DNA of 64,000 bases, from the IMG/VR virus record IMGVR_UViG_3300031994_000020; one strand, given 5' to 3'. Origin of the DNA: a virus (taxonomy: Duplodnaviria > Caudoviricetes). Positions 10,808 to 47,555 of this stretch are shown here, piece after piece. The notes beneath the pieces are model-generated. The model saw only the letters and a list, made by a program, of their open reading frames with translations, made no database searches and was not told the DNA's origin. The first letter of the stretch is position 1, and each line of letters begins with the position of its first letter. The translations under genes were made by a program, and so were the position numbers.

Positions 10808-11527
10808 TTATATTTCTCCTTTTATATCTTCATATATTTTTTTAATTTCTTCTTCTAAAGAAGTAAATTTATTAAATCTATAAAGAATAATATTATGTTC
10901 TTTACAATATATATTCTTTAAATTATCTATATATTGCAATCTTAAAAAATCATTTTGAGTTAATTTCTAATTTTCTTCATAATTAAAATGCTGTCTTCCA
11001 TCATATTCAATTAAACAATAAATTTTATTATTATGAAAAATTGCAAAATCAAAACGTGGATAACCTCCTTTATTAGTAATTAAATCTTTAAAACTAAATT
11101 CTTTTTTATATTCAATTTTATAAAAATTTAACTAATAAGAGATTTGAGTTTCTCCCTATGACGAAACACATCCACAACTTTTTGAATTTCCGTCTATTAA
11201 ACTACCTCTAAAAACCTCTTTTATTGTACCACAATTTTGACATTCACATATCTAAAAATTAGGTTTTTTAGCTTTATCAATTACTTTCTAAAAACCAAAA
11301 GTCTTTCCTATTAAATTATCTTTAATATGTAATGGTCTATCTTTAGCTGCACAACTTTTACATTTAGTTTTAAGATTATCTACTCTTACTGAACGAATAT
11401 TTCCACATTCTAAACATTTACATTTCTAATATCCGCGATGTTTTTCATTAGTTAAATCATTATCTTTTTCAATAATTTCATTAGTTCCAATAATTTGTCC
11501 TGGAGTAAAAATTAAAGATGCTGGCAT
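10808..11527 (-). CDS. Free-standing homing-type endonuclease (CxCxCG repeats plus PD-(D/E)XK/Vsr-like domain) with 5 internal TAG
   Basis: Missed by the ORF track. GY(TAG)KCKCLECG, GF(TAG)KV, NF(TAG)ICECQNCG, SCGC, RFDFAI, IEYDGRQHF; TAGs at 11426, 11288, 11252, 11156, 10967. Confidence 0.8.
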
Positions 11528-11528
11528 T

Positions 11529-12623
11529 TTATCCTATCCCCTTATTTCCATTTAAACCATAATTATATGTGTCATACAGTTCAATGTAATACTTTTCTTT
11601 TTCATCCAGTAATTTTGCATCACATTCTTCAAGAACTTCAAAAGCAAAATTAGATAAACCGCTTTCTCTCATAGCTTTATATAATTTATTTTCAGTAGTT
11701 ATATTACCTACTCCTAAAGCATTTTTACAATGCTGTTTCTATCTATCACAAATATCAACACTTTGACCTATATATGCAAGTCCTGTATTTAAATCTGTAA
11801 GTTTATATATTCCACAGGCAGTAGCTTTTCCTATAATCTGCGGGAACCGCACTTTCGCAATAGGTTGATAATAATTACTCTAAATTATTTTATCTATAAC
11901 AATAGCATTAGTAATTTGAGATTGAATTGATTTTAATAATTTTATATCTTTAAGATTAACTTCTGACATTTTTAATCTGAAGTTATCATTATTTTCTTTT
12001 ATTTCTTGCTCTCTTAATTGAGCTTTAAGTGCGGCGTCGCGGGTAGAACGAATCTTGTCAAGGACTCCTTGAGCCGCCGCGATTTCTTGATTAATTTTTT
12101 CTTTTTCTTCCTCTAACTATTTATTATTTTCTTCTTTTGTTAATTCTAAATTCTTTATTTCCCGCTCTTGTGCATCTGCATATGATTGATTTAATCTTTC
12201 AAGATTCTCATTATATTCTTTTTCTTTTTCTTCATAACTTTGAATAAGTGCATTACAATAATTTTCAAATGCTACTTGAGATAATTTTTTTTGATTATCA
12301 ACTGTATTTGTTACATTTTTCTGTAAATCTTCTAACTGTTGTTGTTTATTTTTTATATTAGAATCAATATGTTCTAATGTCATTTTTTGTTCATGTATAT
12401 CAAGTTTATATTGTTGAAGAGTCTGCTCATTTTGAGCAATTTCTTCATTTTTTTGTTCTATTAAAGAATCTAATTCATTACTTCGCTCTTGTTTTAAATC
12501 ATTAGCTTTATCTATTTCTGCATTTATTTGGTGAGTTTGCTTTTTAATTCTCCTTATCTAAACAGAACTAGACATAGCTAACATCAGTCCAATAAAAAAC
12601 ATTAATGCAGAAATCTATGTCAT
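11529..12623 (-). CDS. N-terminal TM helix, coiled coil and C-terminal GIY-YIG domain protein with 5 internal TAG
   Basis: MT(TAG)ISALMFFIGLML...KII(TAG)SNYYQP...CGIYKLT...AYIGQSVDICDR(TAG)KQH; 365 codons in frame. Confidence 0.8.
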
Positions 12624-19251: not shown

Positions 19252-20289
19252 CGTGTTATTCCAATGTTGCCATTGGCACTGACTATTTCTTCTCTCCGGC
19301 TTACGCATTAACTGCCATCATAGAGACCACCTTTTCCAACTACGTATCAATAGTAGTTGTACTCTCCGACAAAGGAGATAGTCGATACAGGTTATACTAT
19401 AATATTTTTCCAATTTTGATATGACCAAATATTAGTAAAAGAACCTTTAGTAAGTTTATCTTTATAATCTTCATAAACGTCTTTTAATTGTTCACCATTT
19501 TTTCTTCTTAAACGAATTTGTTTAACATCTTCTTCTGTTAAACGAGTTCTTCCATTTTGAGAACCTTTATTTCCAGTATCGTGTAAATGGTATTCTTTGT
19601 TTTCTTTAGTATATACTTCAGGCATAACATTTTTCCATGTTTCACCTTTCCATATTTTATTAAAGCCAGACTCTCCAATTCTTTGATTATAAAGTAAATA
19701 AACTTCTTTTTTTCTTTCTAAATTTGCATATCTTGTTCTAATATCAATAACATCTTGCTCTGTTAATTTATGTCCTGGGTGATTATCTCCAAAATTTGTT
19801 TCTCCACCACTTGTGACATTATATCCATTGTTACATGAATTATAATATGTAATCCAATACTGCTCTTTAATATTTAATTGTTCTGGTTCACATTCTTCAA
19901 TTATTTCAAAAGTAAAATTTTCTATCCCATACTTTTGAAAAGCTAAATATAACGGTTTATTTTTTTCTCTTTCCCAATTATATTGAAGTTTATGTTCTTG
20001 CCATCTTTTTTCAATATGAATGCTTTGTCCAATGTAGCAATGATTATTGATATTATTAGTAATTTTATAAATTCCTATCATTTATTTATCTCCTTTATTT
20101 AATAGATTAGGAGATAATCTCATTTATTATAGTATATTCCCACGAGATTATCTTCAATATTATATAATTTTTATTCATTTCAGTCTGTCCTGAAATGTCC
20201 AAAAATTTTTGAAGACTACCTCGTTAGCCGCTTTTATTAGGCGACCCCGCTGATAAGCGGAAAAGTGGTTAAGGGCCAGACTACCTCGT
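19252..20289 (-). mobile_element. Group I intron in gyrB carrying a GIY-YIG endonuclease
   Basis: 5' exon ends AAAGGGT (U) and pairs with guide GCCCTT; intron ends ...AACACG (omega-G); P7-like GACTA/TAGTC; removal restores KGLGEM. Confidence 0.9.
19392..20081 (-). CDS. Intron-encoded GIY-YIG homing endonuclease
   Basis: MIGIYKITN...CYIGQS...RWQEH...GYN. Confidence 0.9.
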   Translation of the reverse strand: MIGIYKITNNINNHCYIGQSIHIEKRWQEHKLQYNWEREKNKPLYLAFQKYGIENFTFEIIEECEPEQLNIKEQYWITYYNSCNNGYNVTSGGETNFGDNHPGHKLTEQDVIDIRTRYANLERKKEVYLLYNQRIGESGFNKIWKGETWKNVMPEVYTKENKEYHLHDTGNKGSQNGRTRLTEEDVKQIRLRRKNGEQLKDVYEDYKDKLTKGSFTNIWSYQNWKNIIV

Positions 20290-22170: not shown

Positions 22171-23484
22171 TTATGCTTTTTGAGTATATTTTAAATTAAT
22201 CTATCCAGCTCCTGATTTTAATTTACCCTATCCATTCTGCTCTTCAATTATAGTATATATTCCTTTATCTTTTATTGTTCCATTTACTTTATATCCTGCT
22301 CCAGGACCTTGTCGATAGTTAAGCGCACCCGCAGTTACTTTTACTATATAAGGTTTAAATGCGGGAGTCGCCTTTGGCGGAATAGGAGCTTCTTTCACAG
22401 GCTCTGTCTATGTAGGCTGTTTAATTATTGAAGCAGCAGATTCTCCTAAAGAAGCAGTTACTTTATCGGCTAATTCAGCCATTCTTGCCATCATCCAATC
22501 ACCAGGGCAACTTTTCTTTGCGAACTATCTATGTACAGTTAATTTCATTTCATTCTCTTTTGGATTATATGCAATAGCTTTATCTTTGTCAGCAATCCAA
22601 ATAAGTTTAGTTTTATTATATCGTTTACATATATCAATACATAAATCTATTAATTTATTATATACCTTGCTATTAAAAGCATATGGTGTTGTTTTATCTG
22701 ATGCACATTCAATAGTAATTGCTCTATTATCATTTGCAGCGTTTGATGAACACCATGATCTATTAATCTCGTCTACTATTAAACAAACACGACCTTCAGT
22801 TCCTATACCATAGTTACAAGAAGCTTGTCTCCCCTTCGGGAAACAACGACCTATGGCTTCCGCAGTTAATTGACCTACAACACAATGAGGTGTAATTGTA
22901 TCCACCGCATGATTACGTTTCCCGCTATGGTTAGGACTTTTTACTTCACAATCTATTAAAGGAGAATTTCCGCCGGAAGTGTTTCTTACTTCTACTTTTG
23001 TTGCAGTAGGAGTGGAAGTCGCCTGATCATATTTTGTTAAGTTATATGTTTTTACTACATTATATACATTATCAACATAATCCAAAGAAGTAGCATATTC
23101 TGCATCTTTAATAGCTTTAAGATAATCATAAGGATTATTTGCTTGTTTTACTTTTGCATAATTTGAAATATTTATAAATTGAAAATAACCTTCAACACCT
23201 TTTTCCATATTAGCAAAAGAAAACTAAGATGTAGAGATAGGTATATAATTACCATTAATTGTTTGTTCAGAACCAGTATCAGAAAATGTACCATTACTAC
23301 AAGTAACTCTATTAGGTCTATATTTTAAACCAAAATAATTATGATATGTTGCTTTTTTACTTGTTCCAAAAGCACTCTCTAAACATGCTTGAGCAATTGC
23401 GGCAGATGCTACTTTAAAGCCATATTGTTTTGAATACTTTTGACAATATGGAGCAATTGCTTCAATAAATTCTTGTTTAGTCAT
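22171..23484 (-). CDS. Multidomain endolysin (glucosaminidase, amidase_2, SH3b) with 5 internal TAG
   Basis: AQACLES, HNYFGLK, TPHCVVG, ITIECAS, LTVHR(TAG)FAKKSCPG, NG(TAG)GKLKSGAG(TAG)INLKY; TAGs at 23224, 22525, 22408, 22228, 22201; 438 codons in frame. Confidence 0.9.
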
Positions 23485-25803: not shown

Positions 25804-26367
25804 TTAAAGTTGCTTTATACATTCATTGGCTTCTGTTTTTATATCATTTATAATAGTTTCAATATTTACCGGATAGCAATTATGAGAATCTACACCTACA
25901 TGATACATAAAAGGTATCCCATTATAAAAATTTGTTTGCTGATGTGTGTGAGCAAATAAATTAATTATATGCTGTTTTAAATAAGGTCCTTTTTCTAAAT
26001 TACTTGTCAAAGTAGGATAATGATTAAGATAAAAATGATAACCATTCCATTTAAAAAACTGACCTTCAGTAATTTCAACTATATTGTAACATTGATTATA
26101 TAACTCCATTCGTGTATCAGTATCGTGATTTCCTCTAATAACATGAAGCTGACCTTTGAGCTGTTTGATAGCAGCAATTCCCGCATCATTGTTATTAAGC
26201 ATTAAATCTCCAAGAACATATACATCGTCCTCTGGATTTACTACTTCATTGTAGCGAGTTATAATAGCCTTATTCATATCATATACGTTATCAAAACCAC
26301 GCGGTTTATATACAAATTCTCTATCATGGTAAAAATGCCAATCTGATGTAAACCATATATTTCCCAT
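25804..26367 (-). CDS. Calcineurin-like metallophosphoesterase
   Basis: SDWH, LGD, GNHD, HYP, AHTH, VGVD. Confidence 0.9.
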   Translation of the reverse strand: MGNIWFTSDWHFYHDREFVYKPRGFDNVYDMNKAIITRYNEVVNPEDDVYVLGDLMLNNNDAGIAAIKQLKGQLHVIRGNHDTDTRMELYNQCYNIVEITEGQFFKWNGYHFYLNHYPTLTSNLEKGPYLKQHIINLFAHTHQQTNFYNGIPFMYHVGVDSHNCYPVNIETIINDIKTEANECIKQL

Positions 26368-26879
26368 TATTTTATCTCCTCTCGAATCTTTACTTCTTTT
26401 CCTTCTTTATTGTATTCATAAATATATATCTTATCAAATCCTTCATTAAAAGAAGGAAGTGAAAACTGCGAGTACATATTTCTTATTGCAGTCTCAGGAA
26501 CTATTGATCGACCTTCTCGCAGATTATTTCTTGCTATTGCAAGTTCAACAGGAACCTTAATAACAAGAGCTATAACATTTATATCCTTTAATGAAGTTCC
26601 TAATGCTCTTAACAGCTTCCCGCGGGAACATTCATTTATATGAGTAGCATCAACAAAAGTAACATCATTATCTTTTAAAGATGCTTTTATTTCAGATATA
26701 AATTCATTAAAAACTGCTTTTTCTTTAGAGAAATAAGGCTCGTCTTCTGCAACCATTTTAAAACGAATTTCATCGCGGGAGACCACAGCATAGCTACCTT
26801 TTATTTTATTAATTTTATTTTTTATGAATGTAGATTTACCGGACCCCGGAATCCCCACCATCAGATACATTTTCTTCAT
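26367..26879 (-). CDS. AAA_33 polynucleotide-kinase-like protein
   Basis: VGIPGSGKST, SRDEIR, VDATH, RN..R lid motif. Confidence 0.85.
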   Translation of the reverse strand: MKKMYLMVGIPGSGKSTFIKNKINKIKGSYAVVSRDEIRFKMVAEDEPYFSKEKAVFNEFISEIKASLKDNDVTFVDATHINECSRGKLLRALGTSLKDINVIALVIKVPVELAIARNNLREGRSIVPETAIRNMYSQFSLPSFNEGFDKIYIYEYNKEGKEVKIREEIK

Positions 26880-27294: not shown

Positions 27295-28113
27295 TCAGCC
27301 GAGTAATGAAAGAATACTCTGGTTAGACTGATTGCTCTGTGCGAGCATCGCAGTTCCAGCCTGAATAAGGATCTGGTTGTTGCTATAGCTAACCATTTCT
27401 TTAGCCATATCGGTATCACGAATCTGGCTCTCAGCTGCGGTAGTATTCTCGACTACATTATCAAGATTGCTGATTGTGTGTTCGAGTCTGTTCTGAACAG
27501 CACCAAGATCAGATCTCTGCTCAGATACCTTTGCAAGAGCATCTTTAATCTTTGCGATAGCATCCTGTGCAGCGGTATTATCAGCACCAGCTACAGAAAT
27601 ACCACTTATACCAATACCGCTTGCAGACATTTTATCAATGGATATACCAATGAACTGTCCACTTTCAGCGCCAACCTGGAGATTCTTTGAAGTGAAAGAG
27701 CCATCAAGTAAGTTCTGCTCATTAAAAGTTGTAGTTGAAGCTACACGATTAATTTCGCTCTTGAGGGCCTGGATCTCACTATCGAGATAACCTCTATCAG
27801 TGCTGGTCATAGTATCATTTGAAGCCTGATTTGCGAGAACATTCATTCTCTGAAGCATATCATGTACTTCACCAAGTGCGCCTTCTGCTGTCTGTACACA
27901 TGAAATACCATCCTGTGCATTTGCGGAAGCCTGAGTTAAACCTTTAATCTGTCTACGCATTTTCTCACTTATAGCAAGACCTGCTGCGTCGTCAGCTGCA
28001 CGGTTTACTCTGTAGCCTGAAGATAACTTTTCAGTTGCCTTAGACTGTGTTTTGCTTGTTACACCAAGCATACGGTTGCTGTTCATAGCTCTAAGATTGT
28101 GTTGTACTACCAT
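27295..28113 (-). CDS. fliC: Flagellin (short, D0/D1 domains only)
   Basis: [55 protein letters not shown]. Confidence 0.97.
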
Positions 28114-28449: not shown

Positions 28450-29700
28450 TTACTGATGATATTTGAGGAGGAACTCAGGGTCTACACATTTGAAGCTATC
28501 GGTTCCATCCTGAGAACGGAATACTATACCTTCACGCATACCGCCATCTATCTTAGATTTCTCTCCATGAACAAATGCACGAAGTTCATCTATAGTGTCA
28601 GGAAGTACATACTCTTCTGCAAGTATAGGTACAGAAGGTATATCAACTTCATCGAGCATCTTCTTCATTTCTACAGTTCCAACTCTCCCGGTATCAGAGA
28701 AGATAAGGTTAAAAGCACGAAGTTCGCGGTCTTTCATTCCATAATCTCTTTTCTGAACTCCTGCACCGAAGGTCTCCGCCTGTACAGTTACCCATTCCGC
28801 AGTAGGATGAAGCATAAGGAGCATTTCAAGTTTATCTCTCATGTTATACTTTGCGTTCATTTCTACCCATATGTTTCCTATGGTATTTGTGTAATAGTTA
28901 TTATTTTCTTTCTCAGGAGTATTGAATACTACATTTCTGCTACATACAAAGTACTCAGCCTTATGACCAAATTTTCCTCTACGAAGATGAAAAGTAGAAG
29001 ATGAGCCATCTATTTTTTCAGTCGCAACCCACTTTATAGTCTTATCTTCAAGAGTCCGAGGTCTGTTCTCTATACGCTCTTCGTCAGTTTTACGCACTTC
29101 CGCAGGCCAGTCCTTTACGACATTTCTTCCAAAGAAAGCAAGAAATATCCATCTAAAAAATTTATTTTTCTTTATAAGTTTGCCATATTTCTTTGCTATT
29201 TTAGGATGTCTCTGAAGTGCGGCATTTATTTTCGCATCAGGATTGATTTTTGCTTTTCTCTTGTTATCCTCTTCAACAGAGTAAGTTACACCAAGATATT
29301 CAGTAAGGAAATCTCCTTCTGCAAAATAAGGAAAATTCTTATCTTTAGTTATCATTACAGGACCATCTCCTGCAAACTGACCTACAGGACCGAGTTCCCA
29401 ACCGAAAGCCTCTGCGGGAAGTGCAAGTCCCTGAGATATTACCTTAAACTTACCAAGCTTCATAGTCTTTACTTTATAATGCTTTGCAGCAAGAAACTCA
29501 GACCAATCCCGCTCAGGAAGTTTAGAGTCTATTTCAAAATAGACTGCAAGGTCACCTTCATGGAACTCTCCCTTTTTAGCTATACAAGTCCATCCATTTA
29601 CACCTACAAGCTCTATATTATCAGCGCCTTCAATAGGGCGAACCCACCCTATTTTAGCTACATATGCAAGTTCTCTTTGTCCAGTTTTAGGATTAAGCAT
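28450..29700 (-). CDS. ATP-dependent RNA ligase, DRB0094-like
   Basis: N-terminal PIEGADNIE OB-like domain, TEKIDGSS motif I, REGIVF, SFKCV. Confidence 0.9.
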   Translation of the reverse strand: MLNPKTGQRELAYVAKIGWVRPIEGADNIELVGVNGWTCIAKKGEFHEGDLAVYFEIDSKLPERDWSEFLAAKHYKVKTMKLGKFKVISQGLALPAEAFGWELGPVGQFAGDGPVMITKDKNFPYFAEGDFLTEYLGVTYSVEEDNKRKAKINPDAKINAALQRHPKIAKKYGKLIKKNKFFRWIFLAFFGRNVVKDWPAEVRKTDEERIENRPRTLEDKTIKWVATEKIDGSSSTFHLRRGKFGHKAEYFVCSRNVVFNTPEKENNNYYTNTIGNIWVEMNAKYNMRDKLEMLLMLHPTAEWVTVQAETFGAGVQKRDYGMKDRELRAFNLIFSDTGRVGTVEMKKMLDEVDIPSVPILAEEYVLPDTIDELRAFVHGEKSKIDGGMREGIVFRSQDGTDSFKCVDPEFLLKYHQ

Positions 29701-30519: not shown

Positions 30520-31272
30520 TTACTCCTTATCAAAATAAATTTCCTCAAAAGTATCCAAATCAAGTAATGCTACTCTATCAGTTAATATACTACACATATC
30601 TATATCAATTTTATGTCCATTACAATAATGAAGAATAGTAGGTCTATAAACTGAATAGTCATCTACTTCATAGGCTTCTTTTTCTTTAAAATATTCTTCA
30701 TCTATAACTTTATCAACATAATCATAATAAAATCTTAAATATATAACTGGTGTATGTCCATGAACTATATAAACATTTTCTCCATCAGGCTCAAATTTAT
30801 CATTAAAATGATCTCTGTCCCAAAGAGAATCATGGGACCTGAATGGAAGACCCCAAGGGGTGAATCCCGCATGTTCAAGGATAATTTCATTTCCTTCTTT
30901 ATTAATATAACTTATACAAGTAGAAACCATATGTTTATCAAGACTTTCTATATAGTCTTTTATTTCTTCTTTTGTTAATTTCTGTCTCATGGTTTCCCAT
31001 GTGATATCTCCACCATTATGTCCAAGCCATAATGATTTTGACCGACCTCTAATAGCGTCTATCATCATTTGTTCATGATTTCCTTTAAGATAAATAACGC
31101 GGGGGTCATTTTTTAATCTATCCATTAATTCAAATCCATAAGGACCTCGATCTATCGCATCGCCAAGAAAATATAATTTATCATCAGGCTGAAGATAATC
31201 GAGTAATTTAAAAGCTACTTTATTTCCATGAAAATCGCTTGCCGCATATACTTTTCCCATAGTTTTATTCAC
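30520..31272 (-). CDS. PPP-family Ser/Thr phosphatase-like metallophosphoesterase
   Basis: SDFHG, LGDAIDRG, KGNHE, HAG, VHGHTP. Confidence 0.9.
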   Translation of the reverse strand: MNKTMGKVYAASDFHGNKVAFKLLDYLQPDDKLYFLGDAIDRGPYGFELMDRLKNDPRVIYLKGNHEQMMIDAIRGRSKSLWLGHNGGDITWETMRQKLTKEEIKDYIESLDKHMVSTCISYINKEGNEIILEHAGFTPWGLPFRSHDSLWDRDHFNDKFEPDGENVYIVHGHTPVIYLRFYYDYVDKVIDEEYFKEKEAYEVDDYSVYRPTILHYCNGHKIDIDMCSILTDRVALLDLDTFEEIYFDKE

Positions 31273-31446: not shown

Positions 31447-32820
31447 ATGAGTGTAACAAGAGTTATGGGTATTACATCTGGTATGGATACTGAAAGTATC
31501 ATTAAACAATATTCTTCTCGATATACCGCAAAGAAAGATAAAATTTGGAAACAGAAACAATCTTTGCAATATAAAGAAGATGCTTGGAAAGAATTGAATA
31601 AAGATATTTATAGTCTTTATACAAAACTTTCAACTAATAGGCTTTCCGGAACATATCAGAAATCAGAATTAACTTCTTCAAATGAAAAAGTAGCGATTGT
31701 ATCTGGTAATAAAGAGACTAGCTCTCAAGAATTAACAGTAAATCAAATTGCTACTCAAACTTTTATAACAGGTGGAGAAGTTGACAAGAAAGAGCCTATT
31801 GGCGTTAATGGCAATATAACCGTTGTTGTAGGCGGCCAGCACAAAGATTTAAATATTACTCCGGATATGTCTATGGAACAAGTAGCAAAGAAACTTAGTG
31901 AAGCGGGAATTGCTGCAAGTTTTGATGAAAATAATATGAGATTATTTTTATCTTCACAAAAAACAGGAGAAAATAGTGAATTTGATGTAATTGGTGATGC
32001 GGGAGTTCTTGCTGCATTAGGGTTAGGGTCCGCCGCAACAAAAACTAATGGTCAAGATGCTATGATAACTCTTAATGGAGTTCAATTTAAATCAGACAAT
32101 AATCACTTCGATATAAATGGTTATAGTATTGAGGCTAATTCAGTTGGTAGTACGACTATTAAGACTAAAACTGATGATAAGATTTTCGATACAATTAAAG
32201 ATTTTATTGAAACATATAATACTTTAATTAAGAAAATTGATACAGCTTATAATGCAAGTAATAAGGGCTATAAACCATTAACTGATGAAGAAAAAGAAGT
32301 TTTAAGTGAGAAACAAGTTGATGAATGGGAAAAAGTATTAAAAGATTCTGCTTTGTATAAAGATAGTTCTTTATATGAAATAAGTAACGTATTAAAGAAT
32401 ACTATGAGTACCACATCTATTGATGGAATGAGATTATCTACAATAGGAATTAATCTTGGTAATTATTTTACCACAGATAAAAATGAGCGTGGAGTCTATA
32501 CAATAGACGAAGATAAACTCAAAGAAGTTATTAATAAAGATCCGAATAAAGTAACTAATTTCATTACTAAACTATCAGCTAAATTATATGACAATATAGA
32601 CAAGAAAATGAAGTCTACAAATTATAGCAGTGTTTATACTGTATATAATGATAAACAGATTAAAGCTGATATTGAAGATTATGATAAAAAGATTAAAGAA
32701 TGGGAAAAGAAAATCGAGCAGATTGAGGATAAGTATTATAAGCAATTTGCTAAAATGGAAACACTTCTTTCTTCAAGTCAAAGTAAATCCAATTATTTCG
32801 CAAGTTATTTCGGAATGTAA
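31447..32820 (+). CDS. fliD: Flagellar filament cap protein
   Basis: RVMGITSGMDTESII, GQDAMITLNG, IKDFIETYNTLI, YKPLTDEEK..LSEKQVDEWE, YYKQFAKME. Confidence 0.93.
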   Translation: MSVTRVMGITSGMDTESIIKQYSSRYTAKKDKIWKQKQSLQYKEDAWKELNKDIYSLYTKLSTNRLSGTYQKSELTSSNEKVAIVSGNKETSSQELTVNQIATQTFITGGEVDKKEPIGVNGNITVVVGGQHKDLNITPDMSMEQVAKKLSEAGIAASFDENNMRLFLSSQKTGENSEFDVIGDAGVLAALGLGSAATKTNGQDAMITLNGVQFKSDNNHFDINGYSIEANSVGSTTIKTKTDDKIFDTIKDFIETYNTLIKKIDTAYNASNKGYKPLTDEEKEVLSEKQVDEWEKVLKDSALYKDSSLYEISNVLKNTMSTTSIDGMRLSTIGINLGNYFTTDKNERGVYTIDEDKLKEVINKDPNKVTNFITKLSAKLYDNIDKKMKSTNYSSVYTVYNDKQIKADIEDYDKKIKEWEKKIEQIEDKYYKQFAKMETLLSSSQSKSNYFASYFGM

Positions 32821-32866: not shown

Positions 32867-34378
32867 TTATGCAGTTATGGCTTCGTATCTCTTACTGAGA
32901 AGTTTCTGAAGACAGAGTTCCCAGCCAGTCACACCAGTTATAACATTTTCAAAGATTACAGGTGAAGCACCACTTACGTAGGTTACACTTTCATCTTCAT
33001 CGAGGATTGTATTTTCTCTCGCCTGTACGTTCCAATAAATGAGCTTAGGCATCTTGTGACCGTGGCGTGCCCACTTCTCACGAACCTTAGCCATTTCTGT
33101 AGCTACAGGACGATTCTTATGTCTCCAACCATATGAGGTTCCCCAATCAGACATAGCATCAATTTCCATGTCAGAAATGACAACTATTTTCTCAGGTATA
33201 TCTTCTTCTTTTGTAGTAGGACGATCTGCTATTTCAAGAAGCATATCAAAAGTTCTTGTAAGGTCAGTATTCTCACAGAGGTTGGTTCTGTAGATACGTT
33301 CAACCTTATCAACGAAATCTGTTCCTCTTATCTCAATAAGCTGAGGTCTTGAGCTGAAGCTAATGTAGTGATTCTTAAAAGGACCTCCTGCTCTCTCAGC
33401 ACAGTACATACCAAGAGAGATAGCTATATTGATAGGAGCAGATGCTTCGTTACCGGTCATAGAACCTGAAGTATCTACAACGCAAAGCATATTGGACTGT
33501 TTTCCATTGAAATAATCCTTCTGATTATCCCAGTATTTCTCTATCATGGCTCTATCGGTTTCAGAAAGAGAAAAACTACTATTCCAATAGTCCATATGGC
33601 TTGTAGCCTTAGCCACGATCTCATAAGGATAGAGAGTAGCAGCATTTACAGTTGTACTTTCGCTCTTTGCAAACTCTTCATACTTCTTTGCTATGATGTC
33701 ACGTCTAGCAAATGCGTTCTTGTATATAAGTCCAGCCTTAGAGGGAATCTTATCAAATTCAATTTCATCCCATCTGTTTTCAGACATAAGTTTCTCTACT
33801 ATATTAATGCGGGCGCGCAGGTCTGAGAGAATTTTTCTATACTGTTTATGTGTAAGACCAAGGTAGTCCCGCACTTTATTACCCATAGCTATTGTTTCCT
33901 TAGAAGATGCGTTCTCTGAAGGAAGCCACTTTGCAAGTAAAGAAGGAGTCTTGCTTTCAAGATCAATAGCAAGCTGTTCCTTGATGAAATCAAGTGCATC
34001 CTTTTCAACCTTTGTGCCAAAGCAAGCATATACTACGTCATCCCAACGTCTATACTCAGGTATCTGCTTTATGAGTTTGCGGGCTACATTAGCGTACTTA
34101 TTAGCAAGCCAATTAAAGCATATTCTAAAATAGCGGCGTTCACCCTGACCACCACGACAGTCACCAAGATAAAAGAGGCACTTAAGAGCGAGATCTGCAT
34201 TTTCCTCATATGCTTCCTTGAAAAGCAGTATACAGTCCTCATTAGTTCTTGAACGATATGCTCCACCAAAAGCAAACATATCATAGACCTTCTTCATTGT
34301 TGAAGAAAGGGCTGTTCCTCCATTCTCAGTGAGCTTGTAATTTGCATCATTCTTCATTTCATTTAAAAAAGCGTTCAT
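32867..34378 (-). CDS. DUF2828-family (TROVE/Ro60-like helical plus vWA) protein
   Basis: LTENG, GQGERR, RWDD, AKWLPSE, VDTSGSM MIDAS, ISDMEID, IYWNV. Confidence 0.85.
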   Translation of the reverse strand: MNAFLNEMKNDANYKLTENGGTALSSTMKKVYDMFAFGGAYRSRTNEDCILLFKEAYEENADLALKCLFYLGDCRGGQGERRYFRICFNWLANKYANVARKLIKQIPEYRRWDDVVYACFGTKVEKDALDFIKEQLAIDLESKTPSLLAKWLPSENASSKETIAMGNKVRDYLGLTHKQYRKILSDLRARINIVEKLMSENRWDEIEFDKIPSKAGLIYKNAFARRDIIAKKYEEFAKSESTTVNAATLYPYEIVAKATSHMDYWNSSFSLSETDRAMIEKYWDNQKDYFNGKQSNMLCVVDTSGSMTGNEASAPINIAISLGMYCAERAGGPFKNHYISFSSRPQLIEIRGTDFVDKVERIYRTNLCENTDLTRTFDMLLEIADRPTTKEEDIPEKIVVISDMEIDAMSDWGTSYGWRHKNRPVATEMAKVREKWARHGHKMPKLIYWNVQARENTILDEDESVTYVSGASPVIFENVITGVTGWELCLQKLLSKRYEAITA

Positions 34379-35478: not shown

Positions 35479-36207
35479 AGCCGCCGGAGGGACTTGAACC
35501 CCCAACCCGCTGATTTGATTCTCAACTTAAACAAATCTCCTTTCCCAAATAAATCCATAAGCAGTATGTCTTTCATTTTTTAATACTTGACATATATGAC
35601 TATTATCACCGTTTACGGCTTTTGCTGCTTCAGTGGCAGTATCATATTCTGCTATAAAATTATGATCTTTATCAAATTGATAAATTTTCATTTTTACTTT
35701 AGGCTCAGGTTGATTATTAATTAATCTACTTAAAGTTTTTTCAGCTGTATAATTTTCAATAAAATATACATCAGCTTGATTTATTTTTTGTTCTTTGAAA
35801 GATAATGTTCTATTTGCGCCTTGACAATCTTCAATTTTTATAAGATAACATTGCCCATTCCAAAAAGTAGCAAAATAATCAACTTCATCAATATACTTCT
35901 TAGATTGCAATGCATGAGTTGTGTTACTTCCTTGAGTTGATCTAGTTGCAAATTCTATTCCTGTTTTAGATTGATTTTCATGGCAAGTTTTTATTTGAAT
36001 TCTAATTAATTTACCATTTATATCAGCTATCATATCATAACGACAATCTTCTCCCAAAGGAATAGATACATTATATCCAAGTTGAGTTAAATAAGTTTGA
36101 CATTGTAATTCTGTTACCAAACCTTTTTGTTTTGTTTCGTTCATTTAACATTTTATTGTTATCCATTGAGAAACAAATCAGCCGCTCTACCATTGAGCCA
36201 CGACGGC
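35479..36207 (-). tRNA. tRNA-Thr(TGT) split by a 657-nt insert (35516-36172)
   Basis: 5' half GCCGTCG..GCTGATTTGT; 3' half AATCAGC..GGGGGTTCAAGTCCCTCCGGCGGC. Confidence 0.85.
35527..36144 (-). CDS. PD-(D/E)XK homing endonuclease (I-Ssp6803I-like) with NUMOD1-like tail, inside tRNA-Thr
   Basis: KGLVTE, GYNVSIP..EDCRYDMIAD...RIQIKT, VDYFA; C-terminal AKAVNG..SHICQV...TAYGFIW. Confidence 0.85.
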   Translation of the reverse strand: MNETKQKGLVTELQCQTYLTQLGYNVSIPLGEDCRYDMIADINGKLIRIQIKTCHENQSKTGIEFATRSTQGSNTTHALQSKKYIDEVDYFATFWNGQCYLIKIEDCQGANRTLSFKEQKINQADVYFIENYTAEKTLSRLINNQPEPKVKMKIYQFDKDHNFIAEYDTATEAAKAVNGDNSHICQVLKNERHTAYGFIWERRFV

Positions 36208-37928: not shown

Positions 37929-38047
37929 ATATGCGGGTGGGAATCGAACCCACATGTATTCAGAGAACCAATGGCTTCACGGAATCGAACCGTGTCTGAA
38001 TTCCTTTCATGCCCTTGATAGCGTCTACCCATTTCCGCCACCGCATA
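37929..38047 (-). ncRNA. tRNA-Leu-shell RNA (copy 3)
   Basis: TATGCGG/CCGCATA acceptor, GGCGGAAATGGGTAGACGC D-arm, internal T-loop CACGG-TTCGATT-CCGTG, terminal T-arm. Confidence 0.7.
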
Positions 38048-41275: not shown

Positions 41276-43117
41276 TTATCTATCATTATATAGATATATA
41301 TTCTATGCTTCATTCTAAGCACAAACGTCATTTGTTGTCCATGTAATTGATGAGCTTACAAGTGAATGGCTACCTGAAGTTGACATTGCATTTTTCATAT
41401 TTCCGCCAATACCAAAATGGATCTCTTTTCTTTTTTCACCATTTGTTGATTGAAATAAACCATCCTAAGCATTAACATTCATACCCGTCATATTAGTAAT
41501 TGTAATAATATTTTCAAAATTTTTACAATTAGCAAGCATATATCCTACACTTGGACAATTAACTGGTATTGTTAATGGTTGATTAAAATTATAACAATTT
41601 GAAAAAGTAAATGTTAATCTAACGTTACTATTTGGTAATTTTATAGGTTGGTTAAATGAATGAGCACTATTAAACATACTTGTCATATCATAAACAGTAT
41701 CAGGTATATTAATAGGCTGATTAAATGACTAAGCATTATAAAACATGTTACTTGTATTAGTAATGTTATTAGGTATATTAAAAGGTTGGTTAAATGATCG
41801 AGCATTGTAAAACATCTATGTTACTGAACATCCGTTTCCATTATTATACTATTGTATATTTAATGAAGCATTAAATGGACTATTATCAAACATCCTTTCT
41901 GTATTCTGTGCATTTTCAATATATACAGAAGAATTTAAATTACTTGAACTAAAAATACCTGATAATCTTACTGGTTTATTAGAATAAATATTAACAGAAC
42001 TATTAAAATTGTAACAGTAACCAAATGCAGAAGAACAATCAGCCTATTCAAATTTTGAATTACAATAAAAATTCATGGGTTGATTAAAATTTCTACAATT
42101 CTAAAACATTTGATAAGCATTCATTGTTTCAACATAAACAGGACTATTAAAATTAATACAATTTGTAAAACAGTATTGACTCTAAGTAACATTTTTAATA
42201 TTAACAGGACTATTAAAATTAAAGCAGTTATAAAAACAATTAACTATACTTGAATTTAGATTAATATCATCAATAATTATATCTATAGGTTGATTAAAAT
42301 TATAAGCTTCTCTAAAACAATTTACCATATTAGTTACATTATGTGGTAAATTAAGAGGTTGATTAAAATTAAAACAATTTTGAAACGTCCCCATCATCTG
42401 TAAATAAATATTATTAGTAGCATTTGATAATATAGTTATAGATGAATTAAAATTTCTACAATCATAAAGCATATTTCCTATATTCTTAACATTTTCAGGT
42501 ATTGTAATAGGCTGATTAAAATTATTACAATATCCAAATGCAGCAAATAATGATGTGCAAGTTTCTGGAAAATTTACTCTTTGATTAAAACTTTCATATT
42601 GCTACATTAAATAATCCAAATTTGTAGCGTCTTCAGCTATTGTAATAGGCATATTATAAGCATTTTGAAAACGATTCATAGGGAATGTTCCACCTATAAT
42701 AGTATTATTAGTAAAAGATATTGAAAAATCTACACTTTCACTATAAATCTAAGATTTAATATATCCTGCACTGTGTTCTATATTACTTTTTAGCTAGGTG
42801 ACCCTCTAGGAAGTACCATAATAATCTATATTAAAAAAATTATCATAATTCACAGGATTATTTTTTAAATTTGAATAAAGATAATCCATAGATGATATTA
42901 AATTTTCATTAATATACTTTTCTACTGTTATACTAGCATCAGTACCACCTGTTGTTTTTGTTAATATATGATAACGATATACAGTAGAAGATCCACCGCC
43001 AGTATTTATGTTATTAATGGCGGCCGCCATTTCAGAAGGCTTATAAGTTGTTGCAACTCCCGCCTTGCTTCTTATACTATTTGCTATATCTAAAAAGATA
43101 TTTGTTAATGTACTCAT
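41276..43117 (-). CDS. BspA/DUF285-like repeat surface or fibre protein with 13 internal TAG
   Basis: One 614-codon frame joining three ORF-track fragments; repeats of MFxNCxxFNQPIxIP. Confidence 0.8.
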
Positions 43118-44747: not shown

Positions 44748-44873
44748 ATATGCCGTGCGGAACGGAAGCTAAGTCGACTCGAACAGACCACGGCTATCTT
44801 ATATTATTGAGGTTTTTATATAAGACTTAAGTCGATTTTACTAGAGTTAACCTCAATACCTCTAGAGCGATAG

Positions 44874-44991
44874 ACGGAAGGACGAGACTCGAACTCGTAT
44901 CATCAGGCCCCCTAAGCATTATAATAATTGCTGTACAAGAATATATCTAATCTCTTTTATATACTGCGCTCTACCATTAAGCTACCTTCCG
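44874..44991 (-). ncRNA. tRNA body whose anticodon loop is replaced by an ACAGCAA module (RNA 5)
   Basis: CGGAAGG/CCTTCCG acceptor, normal D and T arms, insert ...AAGAGATTAGATATATTCTTGT-ACAGCAA... Confidence 0.7.
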
Positions 44992-44993
44992 CG

Positions 44994-45085
44994 CAGGAGC
45001 TGTAGGACTCGAACCCACACCCGAGGCTTTGGACACCTCTGTCCCGGTTTTAGAGACCGGTGTGCTGCCATTACACCAAGCTCCC
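44994..45085 (-). tRNA. Amber suppressor tRNA(CUA) derived from tRNA-Trp, with a 25-nt variable arm
   Basis: CCGGT-CTCTAAA-ACCGG (anticodon at 45051-45053); acceptor GGGAGCT/AGCTCCT-G73; T-arm identical to the neighbouring tRNA-Trp. Confidence 0.93.
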
Positions 45086-45171: not shown

Positions 45172-45281
45172 AAGACACTATATAAGTTTGGATTCGAACC
45201 AAAATCTTTAAACTTTTACATCTAATATTCTACCTTTAAACTACTCTCCCTTTGCGGAAGCAACATCGCTGTTAGTGTCTT
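45172..45281 (-). ncRNA. ACAGCAA-type stem RNA 6 enclosing a degenerate tRNA
   Basis: AAGACACTA-ACAGCGA...TAGTGTCTT; cargo with D-like arm and TTTGG-TTCGAAT-CCAAA. Confidence 0.7.
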
Positions 45282-47482: not shown

Positions 47483-47555
47483 TTCTCATTCTGGGAATCG
47501 AACCCAGTCTCCAACCCTCTTTAGGGTCGGGTGCTTCCCATCACACTCAATGAGA
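47483..47555 (-). ncRNA. tRNA-like RNA with an 8-bp anticodon arm capped by a tetraloop
   Basis: TCTCATT/AATGAGA acceptor, CCGACCCT-AAAG-AGGGTTGG, CTGGG-TTCGATT-CCCAG. Confidence 0.65.

Follow-up and report, generated by a model that had tools for sequence, protein, structure and literature searches.

An endonuclease-bearing insert without a ribozyme core, bounded by an anticodon-pairing RNA helix, interrupts a phage tRNA-Thr(UGU) gene

The window analyzed here is a stretch of 64,000 nucleotides (nt) from IMG/VR virus record IMGVR_UViG_3300031994_000020 (Duplodnaviria; Caudoviricetes), and its minus strand carries, at positions 36207–35479, a tRNA-Thr(UGU) gene that is interrupted after U36 by a 657-nt insert. 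The 5′ exon (36173–36207, minus strand) is 35 nt long, covers tRNA positions 1–36 and ends in the anticodon UGU, and the 3′ exon (35479–35515, minus strand) supplies positions 37–73 in 37 nt. Between U36 and A37 lies the intron-like insert (35516–36172, minus strand), which starts with UU and ends with UCA, its boundaries being set by comparison with uninterrupted tRNA-Thr(UGU) genes. Joining of the exons yields a canonical 72-nt tRNA-Thr(UGU) as called by ARAGORN. In standard runs on the window, neither ARAGORN nor Rfam reported the tRNA at 35479–36207, and the intron mode of ARAGORN chooses another register for the split gene, with the anticodon UCA (called ‘SeC’) or GUC (called ‘Asp’). We rejected both of these registers because uninterrupted homologues fix the UGU register: it agrees with 27 uninterrupted phage tRNA-Thr(UGU) genes, which are at most 85% identical to the joined exons and share an identical anticodon stem-loop with them. 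The tRNA body has G1–C72 and C2–G71. No near match to this region of the window was found among INPHARED phages, and an exact-pattern scan with the 5′ exon of the window gave zero matches.

The insert is filled almost completely by a predicted homing endonuclease gene (35527–36144, minus strand) encoding 205 amino acids (aa), in which a PD-(D/E)XK domain of the I-Ssp6803I family is combined with a C-terminal NUMOD1 DNA-binding module. Its open reading frame (ORF, 36144–35527) leaves 28 nt before the ATG and 11 nt after the stop codon, so that 39 nt of the insert lie outside the ORF. The match to PF11645 (PDDEXK_5) is strong (6.4e-21; 75.3 bits against a cut-off of 26.1), the protein is assigned to phrog_5018, and its residues 1–83 resemble PDB 2OST, the structure of I-Ssp6803I (E 1.3e-5), with the YD and QxK motifs aligned. 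The NUMOD1 match is weaker (22.5 bits against a cut-off of 22.8 bits), as are the matches to I-HmuI NUMOD-like modules. Homologues of the endonuclease number 131 at E≤1e-10; a profile scan of genome contigs with the endonuclease alignment found no relative.

A reading made earlier from the letters of the window alone (the sequence-only reading) had placed a 657-nt insert ending in A, not G, directly 3′ of the UGU anticodon, with the ORF filling all but 28 nt on its 5′ side and 11 nt on its 3′ side; the coordinates, the joined 72-nt tRNA-Thr, the window sequence and our measurements all agree with it. It also held that this PD-(D/E)XK family normally sits in group I introns. That fits the founder I-Ssp6803I, whose 150-aa ORF lies within a 655-nt group I intron (PMC1995217), yet it does not describe the sampled relatives that we inspected, which sit in ribozyme-less inserts. 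The sole exception among them is L319, where no split tRNA could be defined. This locus has a type II tRNA (1093–1227; Leu(UAA) according to ARAGORN) whose anticodon loop holds an insert of 48 nt with no ORF. A PDDEXK_5 gene lies 300 nt downstream of that tRNA and is followed by a tRNA 3′ half for which no matching 5′ half was found.

Protein-guided and pattern searches of IMG/VR contigs, ENA, Logan and NCBI assemblies recovered further split loci, giving 14 distinct split tRNA-Thr(UGU) loci from phages and metagenomes, with endonucleases 44–91% identical to that of the window. The insert lies exactly after U36 in all 14. Its first base is U in every case and its first two bases are UU in 12 of the 14, and it ends in CA, mostly as UCA, in 13. 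When joined, the exons form a good tRNA-Thr(UGU) with an intact cloverleaf at each of the 14 loci; the decayed tRNA halves that the sequence-only reading had named as a sign against splicing were thus not seen in any relative.

Some phages contain two such inserts in different tRNAs. The close relatives L311 (848–1402) and L312 (2965–3500) have a second PDDEXK_5 insert, in tRNA-Lys(UUU) with the insert ending in AAA or in tRNA-Met(CAU) with the insert ending in AUG, and these second inserts also follow position 36 and show the same helix design as described below. A sister element occurs in a cultured Schiekvirus, Enterococcus phage EFP01 (L327, NC_047796.1), where an unannotated tRNA-Asn(GUU) at 105242–105777 is split after U36 by an insert of ~460 nt. 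The product of the gene within this insert, gp109, listed as a ‘hypothetical protein’, is a PDDEXK_5 endonuclease. EFP01 has no spare tRNA-Asn, and 29 Schiekvirus relatives carry an intact tRNA-Asn gene, which represents the empty site.

We then examined the insert for a self-splicing core. The Rfam models of group I introns, group II introns and small self-cleaving ribozymes had no match in the window, either at the gathering threshold or, for the region, at E≤10, and none in 11 relatives at E≤1; RF00028, the model of the group I core (P3–P9), was among those without a match at each of these settings. The terminal base of the insert is A at 13 of the 14 loci, U at one and G at none. The base before the insert is U36 in 14 of 14, as is the case for the U preceding a group I intron, and U36 is at the same time the third base of the anticodon. 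Along the ORF, synonymous-site identity between codon-aligned relatives is flat (0.50–0.85) with no conserved block. When nine full precursors were analyzed with RNAalifold, two-sided compensatory changes were confined to the four tRNA stems and the terminal helix of the insert, and essentially no covarying internal helix was found in the interior of the insert, apart from isolated single pairs. A group II intron is also out of keeping with the data, with no Rfam match that would indicate domain V/VI RNA and an ORF that encodes a PD-(D/E)XK nuclease, not a reverse transcriptase.

A cryptic self-splicing RNA, that is a group I-like or novel ribozyme core overlapping the ORF, would account for the U before the 5′ junction and for the fact that the founder of the endonuclease family resides in a group I intron (PMC1995217). 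We consider such a core highly improbable: covariance models remain silent for 12 sequences even at E≤10, the insert never ends in G, neither covarying internal helices nor a block of synonymous-site conservation is present, and two recognized protein domains occupy all 205 codons. The claim of the sequence-only reading that the insert has no self-splicing core is therefore upheld by covariance models, covariation and the synonymous-site profile, both inside and outside the ORF. The search with the group I covariance model that it had proposed gave no match, and the finding it named as fatal to its claim, a group I core overlapping the ORF, was not made.

The ends of the insert extend the anticodon stem into a long helix, which we defined by covariation and folding. 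Its 5′ strand (36166–36182, minus strand) comprises anticodon stem positions 27–31, loop positions 32–36 and insert positions +1 to +7, and its 3′ strand (35509–35525, minus strand) comprises insert positions −10 to −1, the last three of which lie opposite the anticodon, followed by loop positions 37–38 and stem positions 39–43. The helix thus has 17 positions (36182–36166 with 35525–35509) and a single U–U mismatch, formed by U36 and insert base −3, and it also appears when the complete precursor of 730 nt is folded to its minimum free energy. Read outward from the tRNA body, the rod consists of the stem 27–31/39–43, U32 or C32 opposite A38, the pair U33–A37, U34 and G35 paired with the last two bases of the insert, the U36–U mismatch and, beyond it, six or more insert-to-insert pairs. 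Each strand of the helix holds one junction, the 5′ one (36|+1) or the 3′ one (−1|37), with 3 base pairs (bp) between them, and on the exon side the anticodon protrudes as a 3′ overhang. A 17-position junction helix with one U–U mismatch that is not a bulge-helix-bulge had already been noticed in the window; it is present as described, is continuous, and recurs in relatives.

Twelve loci could be aligned across the helix. At the variable positions +3 to +7, 51 of 60 cells are paired, compared to a mean of 32.5 and a maximum of 47 when the pairing partners were shuffled, so that none of 5000 shuffles reached the observed value, and slid registers of the helix score 13–35 compared to the observed 51. 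Pairing of +1 to +6 with −4 to −9 was found in 69 of 72 cells, with four to five pair types at each of +3, +4 and +5. The bases flanking both junctions are invariant, whereas the rest of the helix covaries; U36 is opposite a U at 10 of the 12 loci, and positions 34 and 35 are paired with insert bases −1 and −2 in 11–12 of the 12. The 3′ ends of the inserts track the anticodon of the tRNA in which they reside, reading UCA or ACA for UGU, AAA in tRNA-Lys(UUU), AUG in tRNA-Met(CAU) and AGC in tRNA-Asn(GUU).

The non-Watson-Crick cells in the helix are six G–U and no A–C in the 12 aligned loci (seven and one, respectively, when L325 and L326 are included). Since mismatches are of the G–U rather than the A–C type, the helix is selected in RNA of the tRNA sense strand and not in DNA, and we conclude that selection on the ends of the insert as sense-strand RNA is firmly established. 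We had also considered the inverted ends as a DNA feature, such as transposon-like terminal repeats or paired protein sites. This was discarded because there is no target-site duplication and the mismatches on the sense strand are G–T, not A–C. A chance origin of the helix was likewise rejected in view of its recurrence and covariation in 12 aligned relatives and the 0 of 5000 shuffles that reach it.

Comparison of the loci firmly establishes that the insert belongs to a class of mobile, ribozyme-less, predicted homing-endonuclease elements specific for the 36|37 site of phage tRNA-Thr(UGU) and bounded by a selected, anticodon-pairing RNA helix. What the helix is for is less certain. We favor, with a probability of roughly 0.4, the reading that the insert is a ribozyme-less mobile intron that is removed by proteins, which would restore tRNA-Thr. 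Protein-dependent splicing is favored because a helix that is junction-precise and anticodon-tracking and has invariant junction bases is hard to explain otherwise. The element belongs to a widespread phage family and is made up of a predicted PD-(D/E)XK homing-endonuclease gene and some 40 nt of RNA around it. According to this model, the terminal helix would serve as the splicing signal, at which a trans-acting protein endonuclease, supplied by the host, by the phage or possibly by the insert itself, would cut both junctions. The tRNA body would hold the exon ends together, the ends would be healed if needed, and an RNA ligase, for example one of the phage Rnl5 type, would seal the exons into a working tRNA-Thr. 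The topology would be that of archaeal protein-spliced introns, minus their bulges.

Putative enzymes for healing and sealing are encoded on the minus strand of the window, and they may act on the products of the split gene. The candidate sealing enzyme (28450–29700) is an ATP-dependent RNA ligase of the Naegleria Rnl5 type with an N-terminal OB domain (PF21189 plus PF09414; PDB 5COT, 1e-24). It is 47% identical to the orthologous ligase of a complete phage genome, G004 (133.9 kb), which has the same split tRNA. Domain matches point to two candidate end-healing enzymes, a P-loop polynucleotide-kinase-like protein (AAA_33; 26367–26879) and the adjoining calcineurin-like phosphoesterase (Metallophos_2; 25804–26367), and a second calcineurin-like phosphoesterase (Metallophos; 30520–31272) lies near the RNA ligase and could also be involved. 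All three parts of the kinase, phosphoesterase and RNA ligase set that had previously been invoked for resealing are therefore encoded in the window, as judged by domain matches.

The same locus can be understood without splicing. A homing-endonuclease gene may have invaded and disabled a dispensable phage tRNA-Thr, in which case the helix and the tRNA body would serve the selfish element. The transcript would be tRNA-shaped with a long anticodon arm, and RNase P and 3′-end enzymes would cut the endonuclease mRNA, with its ends paired and protected, out of the transcript of the tRNA array; the exons would appear intact because each insertion is young. We regard this as quite possible, only slightly less so than splicing, and the sequence-only reading, which had offered either a protein-spliced intron or else an inactivated tRNA, was right to name both: these two alternatives remain. 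Several observations speak against a disabled tRNA. Both exons are intact at each of the 14 loci, even in L325, where a frameshift damages the endonuclease gene, and in L326, where a 13-nt loss and stop codons do so. At glutamine positions, the inserts of L278 and L318 have acquired 3–6 in-frame TAG codons, which points to a long stay in TAG-recoded phages, and the tRNAs that they split are nonetheless perfect. No spare tRNA-Thr was found in the complete genome G004, nor in the half-complete relatives G001 and G002. The presence of two such inserts in some phages likewise speaks for a tRNA that is still in use. Finally, a helix that merely stabilizes a transcript needs neither base-for-base pairing with the anticodon, nor retuning to the anticodon of each host tRNA, nor invariant bases and a conserved U–U at the junction.

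Against splicing stand a number of findings, some of which speak directly for a disabled tRNA. Between the window and L311, the inserts are 92.4% identical and the exons 83.6%, and the flanks cannot be aligned; between L317 and L318, the comparison gives 79.6% for the insert against 64%. An insert that is more conserved than its exons and flanks is actively mobile, and such a pattern is what recent horizontal spread would leave. Movement of the insert into cognate intron-less alleles is supported, indirectly, by this higher conservation, by the unrelated contexts in which it is found and by the empty sites in look-alike tRNA-Thr genes and in the 29 Schiekvirus relatives of EFP01. Mobility weakens the argument from intact exons, which may reflect recent arrival. 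It also led us to drop a further argument, namely that compensatory changes in the exons prove selection on the tRNA while interrupted: the insert is younger than the exons, and since the element hops between unrelated tRNA-Thr genes, compensatory differences between exons predate insertion. Among ~30 cultured Schiekvirus genomes, the tRNA-Asn insert occurs in EFP01 alone, and the empty sites of its 29 relatives agree with recent spread. ORF-less mini-inserts of 15–45 nt with the same ends gave only three chance matches, which fall in coding DNA, in a search that did not extend to longer degenerate remnants.

The enzymology raises further objections to splicing. Phage tRNAs are usually dispensable, which fits the loss of one to a selfish gene. 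No nuclease of bacteria or phages is known to cleave an unbulged helix with a stagger of 3 nt (that of RNase III is 2 nt), and a cutting enzyme cannot be named. The nicks that Rnl5 ligases are known to seal lie in duplex RNA, not in anticodon loops. EndA, RNase III and RtcB were not found in the complete genome G004, and the EndA family PF01974 was absent from G001, G002 and G004, the first two being partial genomes. RNA repair sets are common in large, tRNA-rich phages, where they counter host anticodon nucleases (PMC7824862), and their presence in the window is therefore weak, permissive evidence.

One candidate for the missing nuclease is the PD-(D/E)XK enzyme of the insert itself. In this phage version of protein-catalyzed tRNA splicing, the helix would copy one half-site and the central triplet of the DNA target, and the enzyme would cut both RNA strands of the precursor with the same 3-nt, 3′-overhang stagger as in DNA, leaving 3′-OH and 5′-phosphate ends that a phage RNA ligase could reseal directly. 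In favor of this, each strand of the helix holds one junction, with 3 bp between them and the anticodon protruding as a 3′ overhang, and I-Ssp6803I reportedly cuts DNA on either side of the anticodon triplet to give 3-nt 3′ overhangs. From the last 2–3 insert bases onward, the sequence of the 3′ strand of the helix is that of the bottom strand of the DNA target. The archaeal tRNA splicing endonuclease also has a PD-(D/E)XK fold (PMC3424549). On the other hand, the distal half of the helix is unlike the second half-site, and two loci keep their exons and helix despite a damaged endonuclease gene, though another copy could act in trans. Nor is any restriction-like enzyme of the PD-(D/E)XK type known to cleave double-stranded RNA. 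On balance we find cleavage by the insert's own enzyme unlikely; if it were true, one protein would serve both DNA mobility and RNA splicing, much as the archaeal splicing endonuclease descends from this fold.

The closest described relative by protein is the group I intron of tRNA-fMet in Synechocystis PCC 6803, which is likewise a mobile insert in the anticodon loop of a bacterial-type tRNA and whose endonuclease, I-Ssp6803I, shares the family PF11645 and the similarity to 2OST. The two inserts are nearly the same length (655 nt compared to 657 nt here; PMC1995217). In the Synechocystis intron, however, a 150-aa ORF leaves ~200 nt for the ribozyme, whereas the 205-aa ORF described here leaves 39 nt and no ribozyme. 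The Synechocystis intron sits after U33, ends in G and is of class fMet.2Ug (bioRxiv 10.1101/2020.01.27.920355); the insert described here differs in that it follows position 36, ends in A and has a terminal helix that pairs with the anticodon.

Archaeal bulge-helix-bulge introns are spliced by EndA and an RNA ligase, and some carry homing endonuclease genes (PMC4090602). They share with the present element the absence of a ribozyme, an intron 3′ end that pairs with the anticodon region, the order of the sites (the 3′ site nearer the anticodon stem, the 5′ site farther from it) and the capacity to carry a homing endonuclease gene. The archaeal type has two 3-nt bulges with 4 bp between the sites, whereas here there are no bulges and 3 bp. 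The setting is also different: the hosts are bacterial by gene content, and EndA was not found in the complete phage genome. The signs of a bacterial host are the tmRNA, the NAD-dependent ligase and the flagellin of the window, together with the CCA encoded in the tRNA genes of several relatives.

Comparable inserts and broken anticodon loops are also known from three other settings. Lak megaphages have ‘enigmatic’ tRNA introns, including one in tRNA-Thr(TGT), which are also anticodon-loop inserts in TAG-recoded, tRNA-rich phages and belong to no Rfam intron class (Devoto et al. 2019, PMC6784885). Unlike the element described here, with its full endonuclease gene and anticodon-pairing helix, those of Lak phages are short and ORF-less, and one is tRNA-shaped. 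In the searchable literature, no account of the present class of elements came to light, the ORF-less Lak tRNA introns being the nearest (PMC6784885). The intervening sequences that RNase III excises from bacterial rRNA resemble our insert in having paired ends that a host enzyme can cut, and no ribozyme. The rRNA fragments are not rejoined, and the duplex that RNase III requires is longer and is cut with a stagger of 2 nt; restoring a 7-nt anticodon loop here would instead call for a 3-nt stagger and religation. For RNase III one would expect a duplex of about two turns with a 2-nt 3′ stagger, and we found 16–17 positions with a mismatch and a stagger of 3. In phage T4, a cut by PrrC is healed and sealed by Pnkp and Rnl1 (PMC7824862), which demonstrates that a kinase, a phosphoesterase and an RNA ligase can rebuild a broken anticodon loop, and the window has a comparable set. 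T4 repair differs in that it mends a single nick inflicted by the host and removes nothing, and the ligase of the window is of the Rnl5 type, not Rnl1.

The window is part of a genome that is large, AT-rich, tRNA-rich and phage-like. It has 23 RNA genes by ARAGORN and 23 by Rfam, including a tmRNA, and its protein genes include those for gyrase, DnaB, an NAD-dependent ligase, RecJ and PhoH. A DUF2828/DUF7788 protein (32867–34378, minus strand) is encoded beside the tRNA array and the RNA repair genes, and the same gene follows the split tRNA-Thr in L311; this protein may belong to a set for Ro-like quality control of RNA. Full-length flagellin (Flagellin_N plus Flagellin_C; 27295–28113, minus strand) and FliD cap-protein (31447–32820, plus strand) genes lie among the RNA repair genes and are unusual cargo for a large phage. 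Another homing-type element, a free-standing GIY-YIG endonuclease gene, is found between gyrA and gyrB (19392–20081, minus strand).

Some genes of the window phage appear to be TAG-recoded. Reading TAG as sense opens long ORFs in gaps left by translation table 11 (41276–43117, 10808–12623 and 22171–23484, minus strand), for example one of 613 aa with 13 TAGs, and a 93-nt tRNA with the anticodon CUA is present at 44993–45085, its body resembling that of the neighboring tRNA-Trp(CCA) but with a long extra arm added. At L278 (2030–2620), in the genome G004, the endonuclease has TAG where relatives have glutamine, and TAG is therefore read as glutamine in that phage. For G004, ARAGORN also suggests uninterrupted tRNAs with the anticodons CUA and UUA, and another split tRNA at 91103–91656, interrupted by 478 nt.

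Four other RNA genes of the window are unusual. The first, beside tRNA-Gln (37929–38047, minus strand), is a 119-nt tRNA-like RNA whose acceptor stem is good and which has two T-arm-like GGTTCGATTCC hairpins; the intron mode of ARAGORN calls it ‘Thr(ggt) with a 42-nt intron’. The second, at 44873–44991 (minus strand), is tRNA-shaped. Its acceptor, D and T arms are good, its anticodon/variable region contains ~45 additional nt, and ARAGORN reads it as ‘Phe(aaa) with a 34-nt intron’; it may be another interrupted or cargo-bearing tRNA. The others are an ARAGORN tRNA with a four-base anticodon (aaag) at 47483–47555 (minus strand) and a weak Rfam tRNA (36 bits) at 45179–45250 (minus strand) that was missed by ARAGORN.

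To our knowledge, the introns described so far in bacteria and their viruses all self-splice, as members of group I or group II, and protein-dependent tRNA splicing is regarded as an archaeal and eukaryotic trait. The family described here, whose design at least 14 phage lineages have in common, has no ribozyme and has nevertheless retained a helix that is exactly positioned, covaries and pairs with the anticodon, and it has sister inserts in tRNA-Lys, tRNA-Met and tRNA-Asn, one of them in a cultured Enterococcus phage. If the insert is spliced, bacteria or phages must own an undescribed splicing route made up of an endonuclease and a ligase, and phage RNA ligases would gain a housekeeping role beyond repair. 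If it is not, the element would be an example of a selfish gene that exploits a tRNA scaffold, and the tRNA inventories of phages would have been miscounted. On either reading, standard tRNA finders miss such genes, as they did in the window and for the tRNA-Asn of EFP01.

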